Sequence record: PP400784
Length of the DNA stretch: 64,000 bases
Direction: 5' to 3' (one strand)
Source of the DNA: Escherichia phage FL38
Below, one piece after another: positions 2,983 to 62,731 of the stretch; the stretch's first letter is position 1, and every line of letters starts with the position of its first letter. A model generated the notes under the pieces. The model was given only the letters and a program-made list of their open reading frames with translations. It was not told where the DNA came from and made no database searches. The translations under genes and the position numbers were made by a program.

Positions 2983-4473
2983 ATGGCAGATTTGAAATAT
3001 GGATCTACTGTAGGTGGATCTCCCATTTGGACGCAAGGAAACTTGACGATCCAGCCAGCGGGGGATCAGCTTTTCTACAAAGGTCATAAAATCTATACCG
3101 CTTTTGATAGACCTTCGGCTACCGATTTTGATGCTGTTAGTGCATCCGAAGGTGGCACATTTCAAAAGCAAGTTCATTTCGAGGAAGGTTTAAGCGTAGG
3201 TAGCGCATCGGCTGGAGAAACCAAAAAGAATGGTATCTTTAAAGGTCAGAGCGACGCTGCTAATTTTGACGGCGTAAGCTGGGGTTTGCATTCATGGAAG
3301 TCAATCGGCTTTGTTAATGCCCGTGATGGCGTTATTATGGCGTATATTGACACCACAACGGGCGAATTTAAGTCTAAAGGGACTATCGAAGGGACAACCA
3401 TTAAAGACACAGGTCAACGCGTCTATAGCCCTGTTAATAAACCAACGAATAATGATTTAGATTTGGTGTCTCGTCGCGGTGATACCCTCACAGGAACATA
3501 TAATTTAAACACTGTCACTGTTAAACTATCGGTTGATTCGAAATTAATTGCAAGGGAACGTGATTTAATTAATTTTGATGCGACTAAGATCTATTATGGT
3601 AACGTTCTTGACACGTTGGTCTTCCGAAGTAAAGATGAGCCTACCATTTTTGTTAATGACAGAGAAGGTCGTTTTTATCACACCAACAATAAACCAACTA
3701 AAGCCGATGTTGGACTAGGCAATGTCACCAATGATGCACAGGTTAAACGTGCTGGTGATATTATGGAAGGTAACTTGCAAGCGCCTAGAATGTTGGCGAC
3801 AAACGATCCTGCTGGTCCTAATGAATTGGTTCGTTTGAGCTACTTTGAGAGAAAATCAATGGTAGCAAATCCAACCATCATTGGAAACGTTGATTGGAAC
3901 ACTCTTATTAATCGCGGTATCTATCGTGTGGAAAATGCTGGATCAGGTACTAATAAACCGTCTGATAGCTATTATAACGGCGTTTTGATGGTATATCGCC
4001 CAGAAGATGCTGTTGGTACTCGTCGAATTGTTCAGGTGTATTATCCTGAATCTATTGACCATCCGATGTGCTGGCGTTCGTGTTCTAATGAATCATGGAC
4101 TGCATGGAACTATGTAGATCACCGTAAATTGGCTGATATTCTCTATGTTAACGTCACTGGCGATACCATGACAGGACCGTTAACTGTTCCGGCTGCAAAC
4201 GGTGTTAGAACAGCTAAAACTAACTATAACGGGGATAACTGTTATGCGGCGTTAAGCGGTGCTGATGGTACTGCTATGATTCACCGCATTAGTGATATTA
4301 AAGGGACCGAAAAGCTGGGGATCACCCACGACTCAAAGGTCGTGTTTTTCCGTTCTCGAAACAATACTCAAACCGTGGACCGCTATCAGCTTTATCATGA
4401 AGGTAATAAACCTACTCCGGCTGATGTTGGAGCGGTTCCACTTAATGCGGTGATTGATTTTGGTACTTTCTAA
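2983..4473 (+). CDS. 36: long tail fiber distal connector subunit (gp36-like), 496 aa
   Basis: ATG at 2983 after the late promoter; synteny; contains two copies of the tail-fibre motif (YHTNNKPTKADVG, YHEGNKPTPADVG) shared with genes 34 and 37. Confidence 0.55.
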   Translation: MADLKYGSTVGGSPIWTQGNLTIQPAGDQLFYKGHKIYTAFDRPSATDFDAVSASEGGTFQKQVHFEEGLSVGSASAGETKKNGIFKGQSDAANFDGVSWGLHSWKSIGFVNARDGVIMAYIDTTTGEFKSKGTIEGTTIKDTGQRVYSPVNKPTNNDLDLVSRRGDTLTGTYNLNTVTVKLSVDSKLIARERDLINFDATKIYYGNVLDTLVFRSKDEPTIFVNDREGRFYHTNNKPTKADVGLGNVTNDAQVKRAGDIMEGNLQAPRMLATNDPAGPNELVRLSYFERKSMVANPTIIGNVDWNTLINRGIYRVENAGSGTNKPSDSYYNGVLMVYRPEDAVGTRRIVQVYYPESIDHPMCWRSCSNESWTAWNYVDHRKLADILYVNVTGDTMTGPLTVPAANGVRTAKTNYNGDNCYAALSGADGTAMIHRISDIKGTEKLGITHDSKVVFFRSRNNTQTVDRYQLYHEGNKPTPADVGAVPLNAVIDFGTF

Positions 4474-4543: not shown

Positions 4544-7333
4544 ATGGCAGATTTAAGCAGAATCCAATTTAAACGCACTAGCACTAAAGGTCGTAAACCT
4601 GATGCTAGTACGATGAATCCGGGGGAATTGGCAATCAACCTTGCGGATCAATATCTTCTTACTAAAAATGATTCCGGTGCTATTATCAATTTAAGTTGTC
4701 CTCCTGTTTATGACCGCGATGTTACAATGGCGGGTAAGGTTAAAGGTAATAATTATATCTTAAGTAAAACCGCTAACTATCTGGAAGATCAGACCGCACG
4801 AGATCTTAATTACTTTGGTGCTTTCCGAACTAATGGACAAGATGGTCTTTTAGATCTAACTCTTAATGTTCCTCATTCTGCTGGCATTAATCATGGTCGA
4901 GGATTTACTTTCCGTTATGCGACTGGCGGATCTCGTGTTGAAACCTATGGGTATAATGCACAGGGACAAAAAGCATTTAGCTATAAAATGTATCACGAAG
5001 GTGATAAACCAACTCCAGGAGAATTGAACGTCTATAGCAAACAAGAAATTGACCGGATGTTTGTTAAGAACGTTAAAATGGTTGTTCCTTCTGGTGGTAC
5101 AAACCGTGGTTATTTTAAAATTGCATCCGCAATGATCCCGCAGAGTGGTCGGATGGCGTTTCTGCGAATCTATGGTGGTAATGGATATAATGTAAACTCA
5201 TATGACCAAGTTGATTTTCTTGAAATTGTTATTCGTAGTGGTAATAATAACCCTAAAGGCGTTAGTATTGCTGCATATCGTCGAAATTCTTTGAACGTCC
5301 ATGAAGTATTTGCAATTAATACTTCCGGTGATAGCTATGACATTTATGTTAACTATGGTCGTTACACTGATAACGTTATTGTAGAGTTTGGAAAAACTGT
5401 TGACGTCGCATTGACTGTTCATGATGTTCCTGAATTTTCGGCGACTAAACCAGAAACCGGAACTAAATTTGATGCTCGTGTTATTACGATGTTCAACACC
5501 GAAAACAAAGCCGGAACATTGATGTTTGATAATAACAATCAGTTAACCTATGATATTGTTAGCCTTAGCAATGGTCCTGATGATGTTAGAAATTATCTGC
5601 GTAAATTCCGAAGTAAAGCGGGTGAAATGATTTGGCATGAAACCGTTCAGGGTGCTGTATATCGTCTTGCTACTGGAACTACTGATTCTACGGAAGTTCT
5701 TAGAGTTGATTCTAACAGTGCTCTCCCGGGTAGCTATAAAGGATATGTAATTACTGGTAAAATGGAATTGCACGGTAGCGGTAGTGCGATGAATTTACAC
5801 CGCCAGACTGGTCAAGCTGCATATATGGCGTGGTGGGATCGTCGTGATGGTAAAAACCAACGTAGTGGTTATATCGGCCATGCGGATGGTACTACTGATG
5901 GTTTTGTGTGGCGTAATGATGTTGGTGCGAACTCATTTGATTTGGAAAGTAGTGGACAAGTAAATTTGACTACAGGAAAAACAAAAATTGTATATACCAA
6001 CGGACAATATTATTCCGCTAACTCTGATGCATTCCGTATGATTTACGGCAATTATGGCGCATTCTGGCGTAATGACGGCACTAAAGTTTATCTTCTTTCT
6101 ACTGCCGAAAATGATCGTTTTGGTGGATGGAACGGCAACCGACCATTCATTTACGATTTGACTTCCGGTAACGTTCAATTAGGCGGTGACGGTAACGAAG
6201 CTGCATTAACGTTAGAACGTGCAAGCAAAGCCGCTCGTTTTACGGGTGATGTTTATGTAGAAAAAGGTTTCCTTCATTTCTCTAGTGGACGATTAGGATC
6301 TCGTGATTTCTTTAAAATCAACCATTGGGGTGATAGCAATAACGGTCGTGATAACATTTTGCAGTTTGAAGACAATAGCGGTGCACACTTCACAACTGAA
6401 CGTAAAATGGCAACCGGTGAAATTACTGCGCGATTTAAAGGATTTGTGCGTGTAGAATCTGGCGAAATTACATTCCATGCTAACCGTGGTTCTTCTTCGC
6501 AATTTAGTCTCAATACATGGGGTAATGAATCACGAAAACAAGTTTTTGAATGTAAGGATGCAACAAGTTATCATTGGTATACCGAACGTACTGCGGGTGG
6601 AACTGGTCCGGTTAAGTTCTCTGTTGCAGGTTCTTTCTATAGCGGAAGCGATGCTAACGTAGGCGGTAGTCTGAATTTTGGTAATGCTATTCAACGCGGC
6701 GCTAGCGTCATTACTATAGATTCTGGTTCTGCGGGTGCTGGTTCTTTTGCATCTCAACATGATGATAACGTCAAAGCACCTATTTTCCAACGTTTAGACC
6801 GTGGTGATGCGTCTACATATGTTCCTTTGATCAAGCAACGTTATGTTCAAGGTGCAGTAACATTCTCGTTGGGTATGCTTCTTAATGAAGGTTCATGGCG
6901 AGTTCATGTTAAAGGTTCTGGTGTTGAATCTAATACTACCTTCTATAAAAACGGCGATTTCCAAGCTGGACGCAATGGTAACTTTAACGACGTTTACATT
7001 CGCTCTGATGCTCGCCTTAAAATCAACAAGGAAGAGTATAAGGAGAATGCCACTGATAAAGTTAATCGCTTGACGGTATACACCTATGACAAGGTTAAAT
7101 CTTTAACCGACCGTACTGTCATTGCTCATGAAGTTGGTATTATTGCTCAGGATCTTGAAAAAGAATTACCGGAAGCAGTAACAACTTCTAACATCGGCGA
7201 TCCCGATAAGCCAGAAGAGATCTTAACAATTTCTAACTCTGCTGTCAACGCTCTTTTAATTAAGGCGTTTCAGGAAATGAGCGAAGAATTGAATGCCGTT
7301 AAAGCTGAACTAGCGGAACTTAAAAAGAATTAA
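4544..7333 (+). CDS. 37: long tail fiber distal subunit (gp37-like) with a C-terminal intramolecular-chaperone-like domain, 929 aa
   Basis: ATG at 4544; synteny 34-35-36-37-t; motif YHEGDKPTPGEL near the N-terminus; the last ~110 aa begin with SDARLK, which matches the autoproteolytic chaperone domain of T5 pb1 and endosialidase tailspikes. Confidence 0.75.
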   Translation: MADLSRIQFKRTSTKGRKPDASTMNPGELAINLADQYLLTKNDSGAIINLSCPPVYDRDVTMAGKVKGNNYILSKTANYLEDQTARDLNYFGAFRTNGQDGLLDLTLNVPHSAGINHGRGFTFRYATGGSRVETYGYNAQGQKAFSYKMYHEGDKPTPGELNVYSKQEIDRMFVKNVKMVVPSGGTNRGYFKIASAMIPQSGRMAFLRIYGGNGYNVNSYDQVDFLEIVIRSGNNNPKGVSIAAYRRNSLNVHEVFAINTSGDSYDIYVNYGRYTDNVIVEFGKTVDVALTVHDVPEFSATKPETGTKFDARVITMFNTENKAGTLMFDNNNQLTYDIVSLSNGPDDVRNYLRKFRSKAGEMIWHETVQGAVYRLATGTTDSTEVLRVDSNSALPGSYKGYVITGKMELHGSGSAMNLHRQTGQAAYMAWWDRRDGKNQRSGYIGHADGTTDGFVWRNDVGANSFDLESSGQVNLTTGKTKIVYTNGQYYSANSDAFRMIYGNYGAFWRNDGTKVYLLSTAENDRFGGWNGNRPFIYDLTSGNVQLGGDGNEAALTLERASKAARFTGDVYVEKGFLHFSSGRLGSRDFFKINHWGDSNNGRDNILQFEDNSGAHFTTERKMATGEITARFKGFVRVESGEITFHANRGSSSQFSLNTWGNESRKQVFECKDATSYHWYTERTAGGTGPVKFSVAGSFYSGSDANVGGSLNFGNAIQRGASVITIDSGSAGAGSFASQHDDNVKAPIFQRLDRGDASTYVPLIKQRYVQGAVTFSLGMLLNEGSWRVHVKGSGVESNTTFYKNGDFQAGRNGNFNDVYIRSDARLKINKEEYKENATDKVNRLTVYTYDKVKSLTDRTVIAHEVGIIAQDLEKELPEAVTTSNIGDPDKPEEILTISNSAVNALLIKAFQEMSEELNAVKAELAELKKN
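7004..7333 (+). other. predicted intramolecular chaperone (peptidase S74-like) domain at the C-terminus of gp37
   Basis: RSDARLKINKEEYKEN...AELAELKKN; the Ser of SDARLK is codon 821 (7004-7006), in frame with the 4544 start. Confidence 0.6.
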
Positions 7334-7373
7334 GGAAACTCCCAGGGAAGGGAACTACTAAGGAGAAACGGCT

Positions 7374-7613
7374 ATGGTCTATAATATCGTCATTGGTGCT
7401 TTGTCTAATTTCGGAATGAAATTATTGTCAAAGTTAATTAGTGAAAAGATGCTCACTAAAATTTTCTTCTATTGCGCTCGTCGTCTTGCGGATTATACCA
7501 ATACGCCAATTGATGATCGTTTTGTGGAAGAACTTTATAAGGAGTTTAATAAAGATCAGTCAGAAGATAGTAACGAGCAAGATAAACCTAGTGATAGTCA
7601 ACTACCTAAATAA
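7374..7613 (+). CDS. hypothetical protein, 79 aa (hydrophobic N-terminus, acidic C-terminus)
   Basis: ATG at 7374 preceded by AAGGAG; sits where T2/T4-type phages have gene 38. Confidence 0.4.
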   Translation: MVYNIVIGALSNFGMKLLSKLISEKMLTKIFFYCARRLADYTNTPIDDRFVEELYKEFNKDQSEDSNEQDKPSDSQLPK

Positions 7614-7646
7614 GAGTACACTGTCATAGTTATCTTAGGGCATTAT

Positions 7647-8303
7647 ATGCAAGTTTCTGAAAAAGGGAAAGACTTTGCTATCTCAAATGTCCTGCGCGCT
7701 ATTTTCACAACTAAAAGCACGGAGTTGCTCGTACTTCGTGTTTTTGCTGCCGTCGTGTTGTCCATATTAGCATTTGTCGTTTATAGTAAAAACGAGTTAT
7801 TTGCGCTTTATAAAGAGACTCGTTATGAGACTTATGCTCACATTCTCCAGGTAGAGAAAGACCGCAATTTTGATAATGCAGCACAGGAGCAGTTACAGAT
7901 AGTTCATGTGTCGGCTGATGCCGATTTTTCTGCTGTTTTTAGTTTTCGTCCGAAAAACCTAAACTATTTTGTTGATTTGGTGGCATATGAAGGAAAGCTA
8001 CCGCATACAATCGATGAAAAAAATTTAGGTGGATTCCCTATCAATAAAACGAGTGAAGAATATCGTAGGCATCTTTTAGGTAAATCCTATTTTACCGATA
8101 AAGATTTCCAGTATATTCCATCAAGAGAAAAGAAATTAGAGAATATCGATATAGGTTTCATGTATTCTTGTCCTATATTCAATCTCGATAATGTCTATTC
8201 TGGTAGTATCGCCATTTCATGGAAGAATAAACCGGATATTGACATTGAGAATTTAGATACTCTTTGCAATCAATCTGCCAGAATCCTCGGAAGGATTAGA
8301 TAA
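7647..8303 (+). CDS. t: holin T, 218 aa
   Basis: Same length as T4 holin t; N-terminal transmembrane segment; long stretches match remembered T4 T (QLQIVH.S..ADFSAV.SFRPKNLNYFVD..AYEGKLP, MYSCP.FNLDN.Y.G, ARILGR). Confidence 0.9.
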   Translation: MQVSEKGKDFAISNVLRAIFTTKSTELLVLRVFAAVVLSILAFVVYSKNELFALYKETRYETYAHILQVEKDRNFDNAAQEQLQIVHVSADADFSAVFSFRPKNLNYFVDLVAYEGKLPHTIDEKNLGGFPINKTSEEYRRHLLGKSYFTDKDFQYIPSREKKLENIDIGFMYSCPIFNLDNVYSGSIAISWKNKPDIDIENLDTLCNQSARILGRIR

Positions 8304-61790: not shown

Positions 61791-61819
61791 CTTTGATTCT
61801 CCTTAGTTGGTATGCGTGC

Positions 61820-61847
61820 ATTATAGCATTGTGATTATCTTTGTCAA
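61820..61847 (-). promoter_or_regulatory. early promoter TTGACA-N16-TATAAT
   Basis: Drives 61500..61790. Confidence 0.6.
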
Positions 61848-61852
61848 CACCC

Positions 61853-61884
61853 AAAAACAAAAAAGGCTACCCCGAAGGATAGCC
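61853..61884 (-). terminator. strong rho-independent terminator after the gp38-like gene
   Basis: 8-bp stem GGCUAUCC/GGGUAGCC with UUCG tetraloop followed by UUUUUUGUUUUU. Confidence 0.85.
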
Positions 61885-61891
61885 CATAAAA

Positions 61892-62677
61892 TTACACGCG
61901 AGCACCGTAGATCGTGCCTACTTTATCCCAGCGAGGGGCATTACCAGTAACAGCTTTACCCGCAGCACCACCCGAGTGAACAGTTCCACCAGTACCACCT
62001 TTAATATATGAAGATTTGCCAGCAGCTCCCAAATCTCCACCATCTCCTCCATAATGAACCCCAGAAACAGTGCCTTTACCTGGGGCAGAAATTGTACCAG
62101 CAGATGCTGCCGCTGCGCCGCCTCCTGCCGCACCCGCAGCACCAAATGGACGGCCTCCACCGCCGCCAAATTTCATATCCATTTGAGGGAAAGGATTGTA
62201 TCTAGCACCAGCACCGCCACCACCGCCACCACCAATAATACCATTATTGTTTATTCTTAAACGAGTTCCAATTCCGTTATTTATTGCATTTCCTCCTGCT
62301 CCACCAGCAGAGTTACTTCCGCCATTTCCTCCACGACCTAATACATGAACACCAGAGTTAATAATGAGTGTTACATATTCGTTTGTCAGTGAGTTAGGGA
62401 AATCAAGACAAGGAACGCCAGTAGATTGGGAAACAATATTACCCGTGATAGTAATTACTACCGGAGTAGATCCTTGTGCTTTCATCCAGTTAATAAGAGT
62501 GTCTTTATTGTAAGAGTTACTAGCACCAATGCTATAATGAATCTCTTTAGAGCGTCCGACCATTGCCGACATATACGCCGGACGACCTAAGCGAACAGCT
62601 TGCATTGCGGCGCTCATCCACCGTTGACCAGTCTCGGACACAGCAGATGATCCTACCCATCCAGAAGATATTGCCAT
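61892..62677 (-). CDS. gp38-type glycine-rich adhesin-like protein (T2/S16-type receptor-recognising protein architecture), 261 aa
   Basis: ATG 62677 with GAGG upstream; N-terminus MAISSGWVGSSAVSETGQRWMS closely matches the remembered gp38 adhesin N-terminal domain (GWIGSSAVNETGQRWMS); C-terminal half is a series of poly-Gly motifs (GRGGNGGSNS, GGGGGGGAGA, GGGGGRPFG, GGDGGDLGAAG) between short variable segments. Confidence 0.65.
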   Translation of the reverse strand: MAISSGWVGSSAVSETGQRWMSAAMQAVRLGRPAYMSAMVGRSKEIHYSIGASNSYNKDTLINWMKAQGSTPVVITITGNIVSQSTGVPCLDFPNSLTNEYVTLIINSGVHVLGRGGNGGSNSAGGAGGNAINNGIGTRLRINNNGIIGGGGGGGAGARYNPFPQMDMKFGGGGGRPFGAAGAAGGGAAAASAGTISAPGKGTVSGVHYGGDGGDLGAAGKSSYIKGGTGGTVHSGGAAGKAVTGNAPRWDKVGTIYGARV

Positions 62678-62690
62678 AAAATTTCCTCAC

Positions 62691-62713
62691 AAGAAAAGCC
62701 CCAATTAAGGGGC
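62691..62713 (-). terminator. terminator-like hairpin upstream of the gp38-like gene
   Basis: GCCCC-uuaauu-GGGGC followed by UUUUCUU, 14 nt before the RBS. Confidence 0.6.
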
Positions 62714-62731
62714 ATTGATTGATAATATTAC

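Follow-up and report, generated by a model that had tools for sequence, protein, structure and literature searches.

The closest described counterpart of the tail fibre locus analysed here is that of phage RB49. There, gp37 carries at its C-terminus a chaperone domain that cleaves itself off, and a gp38 monomer binds once this domain has been removed (Efimov 2022; PMC9569957). Already before, gene 38 (g38) of RB49 had been found to be displaced, with a small ORF in its place (Trojet 2011; PMC3157838). In phage S16, the last 113 residues of gp37 self-cleave at DLNVS^SDRRIKK (^ marks the scissile bond), which exposes the docking surface for gp38, and T4-like Yersinia (fPS) phages carry DVYIR^SDGRLKI (PMC7917993). 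For T2 and T6, PMC3157838, Drexler, Riede and Henning (1986) and Riede (1987) describe a gp37 whose C-terminus is removed proteolytically and a gp38 adhesin of ~260 aa that caps the fibre.

Related chaperone domains are known from T5 pb1, K1F endosialidase and GA-1 gp12 (4UW8, 3GW6, 3GUD), where they are also located at the C-terminus of a trimeric fibre. In T5 pb1, the dyad is Ser1264/Lys1269, the exchange S1264A blocks cleavage, and the core of the domain is a trimeric coiled coil (PMC4690869). Two upstream residues of T5, Arg1250 and Asp1239, form a "folding sensor" from the neighbouring subunit. Self-cleavage and release have been demonstrated in the S16, T2, T5 and K1F homologues (PMC7917993, PMC3157838, PMC4690869). 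In T4, where gp38 and gp57A act as chaperones for gp37, the fibre shaft is homologous and the genes are named alike, but gp37 lacks an S74 domain and ends in a receptor-binding needle tip of its own, and gp38 assists folding and is not related to the adhesin (PMC6851490).

The window analysed here is a stretch of 64,000 nucleotides from Escherichia phage FL38 (PP400784). Its gene 37 (g37) and the sequence following it contain these features:

4544..7333, plus strand: gene 37, long tail fibre distal subunit precursor, 929 aa (ORF, phrog_1699, megablast)
4544..7003, plus strand: predicted mature gp37, aa 1-820, 90.4 kDa (from the R820^S821 cleavage site)
6986..7021, plus strand: junction N815-D-V-Y-I-R820 / S821-D-A-R-L-K826 with the predicted scissile bond and the Ser/Lys dyad (22-homologue alignment)
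7004..7330, plus strand: intramolecular chaperone domain, aa 821-929, 12.2 kDa, pI 4.84 (Pfam, 6F45_A, AF2, Foldseek)
7235..7327, plus strand: long C-terminal helix of the chaperone domain, aa 898-928 (DSSP, positions 138-168 of the 169-aa model)
7374..7613, plus strand: Dc5-like 79-aa ORF between g37 and t (phrog_402, function unknown, E 1e-19)
7647..8303, plus strand: holin t, 218 aa; the fibre module ends here (Pfam Phage_holin_T, E 4.5e-61)

The phage is an RB49-like Krischvirus. Megablast gave 95% identity to phage kaaroe and 91% to RB49 gene 37, and among the PHROG families gp37 falls into phrog_1699 ("long tail fiber protein distal subunit"; E 7e-153). The gene order g34-g35-g36-g37-Dc5-t and a g38 at the same distal locus are shared with RB49, and the published description agrees point for point (Desplats 2002; PMC3157838; PMC9569957), whereas gp37 is shorter, 929 aa compared to 979 aa. 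A Gp34_trimer domain lies at aa 426-537 (Pfam). The PDB sequence search with whole gp37 was dominated by this internal gp34-like trimerisation domain and was rerun with the C-terminal 179 aa.

A preliminary description of the locus had assigned the last ~110 aa of gp37, beginning with SDARLK, to the chaperones of the T5 pb1 and endosialidase type. The coordinates are exact, with codon 821 beginning at nt 7004 and ...NDVYIR-SDARLKINKEE... running to the stop codon at 7331-7333, and the assignment is borne out. The domain sits at the extreme C-terminus of the distal subunit, where Pfam Peptidase_S74 (PF13884, "chaperone of endosialidase") matches aa 821-880 over profile positions 1-58 of 58 with E 1.4e-11 and 45 bits, above the gathering cutoff of 22 bits; the C-terminal fragment alone gave E 1.2e-12 and 48.3 bits. 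The nearest relative with a solved structure, the S16 gp37 construct (6F45_A; Dunne 2018), aligns to aa 802-927, that is, to the junction and the entire chaperone domain. In the AlphaFold (AF2) monomer model of the C-terminal fragment, block-mean pLDDT is 80-95 across the domain and drops below 50 shortly before S821 (fragment residues 1-36 and 51-58). The eleven best PDB matches of this model in Foldseek (ranks 1-11) were all intramolecular-chaperone/ICA domains, among them the MyRF ICA domain (7DC3; E 2.7e-5, probability 1.0, TM 0.55-0.67) and the chaperones of K1F endosialidase (3GW6) and GA-1 (3GUD). Because profile, Ser-x4-Lys dyad and fold agree, gp37 aa 821-929 is an S74-type intramolecular chaperone of the T5 pb1/endosialidase kind; it is shorter than in T5 (109 compared to 133 aa). 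Its identity, dyad and fold are direct results of this analysis. The domain had also been called helical and acidic, which is roughly right: it is acidic (pI 4.84; 21 D+E vs 15 K+R in the last 109 aa) and ends in a helix of 31 residues, but the model as a whole is mixed alpha/beta. For the mature part of gp37, a pI of 8.84 was computed. In the trimer, the end helix (aa 898-928) is predicted to make up the coiled-coil core.

The residues around the junction are strongly conserved. The homologue search with the fragment returned mostly partial proteins, which sufficed for the alignment but not for a census; the latter was therefore done by tblastn against phage genomes. V817, R820, S821, D822 and K826 are invariant in all 22 aligned homologues, and conservation is 90% or more at N815, D816, Y818, I819, R824 and L825. 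The cleavage site R820^S821 was placed by alignment to the S16 and fPS junctions (PMC7917993), and NDVYIR^SDARLK (aa 815-826) contains the same docking-end motif DVYIR^SD as the fPS phages. The S-x4-K spacing equals that of Ser1264/Lys1269 in T5 pb1 (PMC4690869). R809 and D804 lie at roughly the distances of the T5 sensor residues; R809 is not invariant, and the monomer model is unreliable there. Compared to RB49, the chaperone domain is 96% identical, whereas aa 700-790, just before the junction, show 8-20% identity and vary strongly between relatives. A domain conserved to this degree beside a diverged tip argues for selection on the domain. S16 gp37 shares the S-D-x-R-x-K motif, but its junction reads DLNVS^S and its tip upstream of the junction is only weakly similar in sequence.

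Very probably, the locus encodes an ordinary Krischvirus long-tail-fibre tip built to the T2/T6/S16 plan. According to this reading, gp37 would be synthesised as a 929-aa precursor, and the chaperone S821-N929 would trimerise via its C-terminal helix and act as a template on which the triple-stranded fibre tip before it folds. In the correct trimer, Ser821, activated by Lys826, would cut the R820-S821 bond, and the 12-kDa acidic domain is predicted to depart after trimerisation. On the new end ...NDVYIR820, one gp38 molecule would dock by its N-terminal three-helix attachment domain, with gp38 as the actual receptor-binding adhesin and Dc5 as an unrelated small gene preceding the holin. Cleavage, release and docking in this phage are proposed from the homologues and the literature. 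Compared to T5, K1F and GA-1, with which gp37 shares Pfam family, fold and dyad spacing, the mature tip would then not itself bind or cleave the receptor, and release is predicted to admit a separate adhesin.

The gene for this adhesin is found elsewhere in the window, where it is flanked by the following features:

61820..61885, minus strand: terminator-like hairpin just past g38 (61885-61864), then a sigma-70-type promoter (61847-61820)
61892..62677, minus strand: gene 38, T2/S16-type monomeric adhesin, 261 aa (Pfam GP38, Gp38_N, 6F45_D, phrog_2056)
62698..62713, minus strand: terminator-like hairpin directly upstream of g38, GCCCCTTAATTGGGGC then TTTTCTTGTG

The gene is intact, and its product matches Pfam GP38 (E 4.4e-70), the attachment domain Gp38_N (E 3.9e-18) and phrog_2056 ("tail fiber protein; host specificity"; E 6e-99). 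The S16 gp38 chain 6F45_D matches over the full length (aa 1-259, E 1e-48), and an N-terminal attachment domain, beta-helix and polyglycine sandwich are shared with S16. The RB49 orthologue RB49p079 is annotated g38; read by eye and not scored, the first ~110 residues seem nearly the same as in RB49 gp38, whereas the C-terminal receptor-binding part is unlike RB49 and 99.6% identical to kaaroe, MIZ, W115 and FL37. Two tryptophan prongs, W7 and W20, are kept, and the third is Y35 both here and in RB49 (RPAYMS vs RPFWIS in S16 gp38).

The identity of gp38 and the gene layout are thus observed directly, and they settle a further point of the preliminary description, which had found the distant gp38-like gene puzzling next to a self-cleaving gp37. 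This puzzle arose from a confusion of T4 gp38, a chaperone, with the T2/S16-type gp38, an adhesin that carries Gp38_N. In fibres of the T2/T6/S16 type, the surface on which gp38 docks becomes accessible when the gp37 chaperone cleaves itself off (PMC7917993, PMC3157838); chaperone domain and gp38 therefore belong together and do not conflict. gp38 is predicted to cap mature gp37, and the absence of g38 directly downstream of g37 is a matter of layout, not of mechanism. In S16, g38 adjoins g37, and in T2 and T6 the order is g37-g38-t.

This last order is also seen in some krischviruses. In FL15, g37 is followed directly by g38, Dc5 and t, the distal site is empty, and g37 likewise ends in NDVYIRSDGRLK and the chaperone domain. 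Every genome examined thus combines a single gp37 that bears the chaperone with a single gp38. An alignment of the window with the g38-free FL15 site shows cassette boundaries. The adhesin gene might be a small mobile cassette within Krischvirus, adjoining g37 as in FL15 or lying ~54 kb away in the early-gene hyperplastic region as in this window and RB49, but this is a tentative and rather doubtful proposal.

It is very improbable that, as in T5, the gp37 tip itself binds the receptor after release and that the distant gp38-like gene is unrelated, be it a surplus adhesin, a component of a different structure or a remnant. Such a reading could draw on the setting of g38, which is found at a distance of ~54 kb from g37 and on the other strand, amid early-type small ORFs and bracketed by hairpins. 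A T4-type late promoter (TATAAATA) was sought upstream of g38 and none was found nearby: within the 64 kb, an exact match occurs solely at 2941-2948, in front of g36, and the closest site with one mismatch on the g38 strand lies ~700 nt upstream. The promoter at 61847-61820 is perfect (12/12 positions) and serves the ORF after g38. The variation of gp37 aa 700-790 is also as expected of a receptor-binding part. However, gp38 retains its attachment domain, an intact gene and an RB49-like N-terminal part, and the gp37 junction has the conserved docking end DVYIR (PMC7917993). Host-range mutants of RB49 map to gp38 (E230K, Y231S; PMC9569957), and Krischvirus gp38 variants predict the use of OmpA, Tsx or OmpF (PMC12032242). 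Furthermore, 8 records contain this gp38 variant (identity of at least 99%), but the gp37 tip is matched at an identity of at least 95% in only 4, which fits docking solely on the conserved gp37 end. For the capped T2/T6/S16-type fibre, co-expression of g38 with g37 is assumed; a distal g38 with hairpins and without a late promoter could mean an expression schedule different from that of gp37.

No gp38-like gene was found between g37 and t. The next gene had been described as a 79-aa ORF other than gene 38, which is correct: Dc5 is not gene 38 and probably stands outside the fibre. There is only a slim chance that it functionally replaces gene 38 as a small chaperone or assembly factor for gp37. 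Dc5 takes the place right behind g37, has 96-99% identity to its counterparts in RB49, kaaroe and FL15, and appears to be co-transcribed with g37, as no terminator-like site lies between the two; a tail-fibre gene likewise precedes the homologue of phage Moogle. On the other hand, FL15 keeps Dc5 between g38 and t, and with both genes present Dc5 is no substitute for g38. The Moogle fibre is devoid of an S74 domain, and in that phage the Dc5 homologue overlaps with the beginning of a putative holin gene. In Vibrio phage 1.016.O, the gene directly before the homologue encodes a GH108 endolysin, and no fibre gene adjoins it; the closest genes with a structural-type annotation lie ~0.8 kb downstream on the other strand. 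Dc5 had no match in the Pfam search, nor to tail-fibre-assembly families in Pfam and PHROG.

Dc5 homologues adjoin lysis genes in other phages. The family may represent an uncharacterised small lysis-associated protein common to T4-like, FelixO1-like and Vibrio phages. The best 19-residue hydropathy window of Dc5 (1.19, Kyte-Doolittle) is under the usual threshold of 1.6, and therefore no transmembrane claim is made. The idea that Dc5 travels with S74-bearing fibres was rejected on account of the Moogle fibre.

Least probable of all is that the S74-like domain is a non-cleaving remnant kept on the mature fibre as a structural cap: a literature search found no direct proteolysis, virion mass-spectrometry or proteomics data for any Krischvirus, but the dyad and its flanking residues are invariant, the domain is conserved beside a diverged tip, if retained, it would cover the surface on which gp38 docks in S16 (PMC7917993), and T2 gp37 is proteolytically processed according to Drexler (1986) as cited in PMC3157838.

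The preliminary description had also concluded that the fibre folds independently of other chaperones. This was overstated and does not follow, because the relative RB49 encodes a gp57A homologue, the "tail fiber chaperone" RB49p127. A gene of this type lies outside the window, and gp34, gp36 and gp12 have no S74 domain. A T4-type tip, with a gp38 chaperone gene beside an uncleavable gp37, was considered as well and rejected: gp37 has the S74 domain, the next ORF is Dc5, and the sole gp38 of the window is of the adhesin type.

A self-cleaving gp37 domain together with a separate gp38 adhesin is real but ordinary and has already been published. The combination of an S74-bearing gp37 with a distant gp38 should not be flagged as anomalous, and the result matters mainly as a correction. 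The mature fibre is to be modelled as a trimer of gp37(1-820) with one gp38, and prediction or engineering of host range should target gp38 at 61892-62677 and not the gp37 C-terminus. If the cassette proposal were true, adhesin and fibre could be exchanged independently. The polymorphic position of g38 and the neighbours of Dc5 are small leads for modular exchange and lysis cassettes, respectively.

In a megablast search of phage genomes, Escherichia phage kaaroe matched positions 4544-8303 of the window at 95% identity and RB49 at about 91%; both belong to Krischvirus RB49 (Straboviridae). At its left end the window has its genes in the order annotated for these two phages, in which the 79-aa ORF is named Dc5:

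15-1604, g34, C-terminal part
1638-2777, g35
2983-4473, g36
4544-7333 (plus strand), g37, encoding the distal long tail fibre protein of 929 aa
7374-7613, 79-aa ORF (Dc5)
7647-8303, holin t (Pfam Phage_holin_T, E 4.5e-61)

Gp36 (496 aa) scored 21.4 bits against Pfam Phage_T4_gp36, which is below the threshold of 26, and its first 40-80 residues match the N-terminal ends of several PHROG families of gp37 type. The gap of about 200 nt between g35 and g36 holds a 9-bp terminator-like hairpin (2789-2811) and an exact TATAAATA that has no second copy in the 64 kb (2941-2948, 35 nt 5' of g36; chance expectation 5.4). PF21446 (Gp34_trimer, E 3.4e-38) matches aa 426-537 of gp37 (window 5819-6154), and this domain aligns with the solved T4 gp34 C-terminal structures 5NXF and 4UXE; a proximal-fibre module is thus reused in the distal subunit.

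A preliminary description had proposed that gp37 ends in a helical, acidic, self-cleaving chaperone domain. Codon 821 starts at nucleotide 7004, and the protein reads NGNFNDVYIR-SDARLKINKEEYKEN across this point and on up to the stop codon. The suggested comparison with the chaperone-of-endosialidase profile, Pfam Peptidase_S74, gave a match of aa 821-880 over all 58 profile positions (E 1.4e-11, 45 bits at a gathering score of 22; E 1.2e-12 for the isolated C-terminal fragment). The 109-aa segment has a pI of 4.84 with 21 D+E versus 15 K+R, whereas the preceding 820 aa have a pI of 8.84. The original observation and its position thus hold, with a profile match far beyond chance. By tblastn, the domain was present in 1,520 of 50,697 phage records, mostly in T-even-like gp37 genes, T5-like L-shaped fibres and streptococcal PblB, and it is a very common module.

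When the C-terminal 169 aa were aligned to 21 homologous database sequences (33-79% identity), R820, S821, D822 and K826 were invariant and N815, D816, Y818, I819, R824 and L825 were at least 90% conserved. The Ser-x4-Lys spacing of S821/K826 is that of Ser1264/Lys1269 in T5 pb1, of which the Thr1263-Ser1264 bond is cut, with S1264A blocking cleavage and a mechanism as in K1F endosialidase (PMC4690869). An AlphaFold2 monomer model built from the alignment, unreliable just upstream of S821, reached block-mean pLDDT values of 80-95 over fragment residues 61-169, the chaperone domain. It predicts a unit of mixed alpha/beta structure whose last element is a helix of 31 residues, so that the label "helical, acidic" is about right. 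In a Foldseek search of the PDB, ranks 1-11 were all intramolecular-chaperone-type domains, led by the MyRF ICA domain 7DC3 (E 2.7e-5, probability 1.0, TM 0.55-0.67) and including the chaperones of K1F endosialidase (3GW6) and GA-1 (3GUD), followed from rank 12 on by E values of at least 0.6 throughout. The nearest solved sequence relative is a phage S16 gp37 construct (PDB 6F45), which aligns over aa 802-927 and places its sSDRRIKk opposite rSDARLKi. The domain assignment is confirmed.

S16 gp37 is cut at DLNVS^SDRRIKK, and in T4-like Yersinia phages the junction is DVYIR^SDGRLKI (PMC7917993), with the same DVYIR^S as here. Because the dyad is invariant, the junction motif identical and experimental precedents exist in S16, T2, T5 and K1F, it is highly probable that gp37 of this phage would be cleaved between R820 and S821, release a 12.2-kDa domain and allow gp38 to dock. 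Literature searches found no measurement of cleavage, domain release or gp38 docking in any Krischvirus. The role of the domain is spelled out in the fibre literature, which already covers each part of the finding; the feature is known in this phage lineage as well as more generally.

Of the earlier interpretation, a folding chaperone at the C-terminus, predicted to be released, could be retained. With the S74 domain, a helper of the T4 gp38 type is plausibly dispensable. Full chaperone independence does not follow, as RB49 encodes at the gp57A position, between 57B and gene 1, an 86-aa protein annotated as "tail fiber chaperone" (RB49p127). The corresponding locus lies outside the window, and relatives of 91-95% identity suggest that this phage probably carries the gene as well.

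Dc5 is indeed not gene 38. No Pfam family matches it, and among the PHROGs it falls into phrog_402, a family of unknown function (E 1e-19). As a stand-in for g38 it was ruled out, since the Krischvirus phage FL15 carries g37-g38-Dc5-t, with g38 at 3655-4437 of its locus L008 and a Dc5 98.7% identical. Homologues occur in 388 phage records. Dc5 is the 5' neighbour of holin t in the window; in Citrobacter phage Moogle (L006 3492-3686) it lies between a tail-fibre gene without S74 domain and a putative holin, the start of which it overlaps, and in Vibrio phage 1.016.O (L007 3504-3713) directly 3' of a GH108 endolysin. As a lysis gene recurs beside it in these three unrelated phage groups, a function in the lysis cassette is likelier than one in the fibre, judged from three gene contexts only. 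Hydropathy did not support a classical transmembrane helix.

The gp38 gene itself is found at a distal site of the window (61791-62731, minus strand):

61892-62677 (minus strand), displaced g38, 261 aa (Pfam GP38, E 4.4e-70; Gp38_N attachment domain, E 3.9e-18)
62573-62575 (minus strand), gp38 Y35 codon
62713-62698 (minus strand), terminator-like hairpin at one flank
61885-61864 (minus strand), terminator-like hairpin at the other flank
61847-61820 (minus strand), perfect sigma-70-type promoter beyond the latter hairpin

No TATAAATA late promoter lies near displaced g38, the nearest one-mismatch site being about 700 nt upstream. The location is polymorphic within Krischvirus, beside g37 in FL15 and at the distal site only in the window and RB49. 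The FL15 distal site is empty (L009 2919-2979); there, a TTGACA / stem-loop / TATAAT element comes straight after the upstream ORF's stop codon and leads into the next ORF. Each genome examined has one gp38 and no more.

The distant gene had been called puzzling. S16 gp38 (6F45_D) aligns with its product end to end (E 1e-48), and the RB49 orthologue RB49p079 is annotated as "g38; similar to T2 and RB69 gp38 adhesin". The T4 gp38 chaperone shares the gene number with the adhesin and is otherwise unrelated (PMC6851490). The gp38 of the window is of the S16/T2 adhesin type, not a T4-type chaperone; with the two told apart, the puzzle disappears, and domain release and the adhesin would each make up half of a single mechanism. 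Of the three tryptophan prongs in the S16 gp38 attachment domain, W7 and W20 are retained, and the third (RPFWIS) is replaced by tyrosine Y35 (RPAYMS) both here and in RB49.

Between the window and RB49, gp37 shares 96% identity in the chaperone domain but only 8-20% in aa 700-790 just upstream (window 6641-6913). This tip was matched at 95% identity or more in only 4 of 50,697 phage records and is a mosaic, rare variant. The gp38 variant is more widespread, with 8 records at 99% identity or more. Tequatrovirus gp38 proteins (RB18, Shfl2, UFV13 and others) are about 90% identical to it over aa 5-260, whereas RB49 gp38 differs in its C-terminal receptor-binding part, which points to exchange of adhesins across genera. 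Docking of gp38 restricted to the conserved DVYIR end, with adhesins swapped across genera, would fit this distribution.
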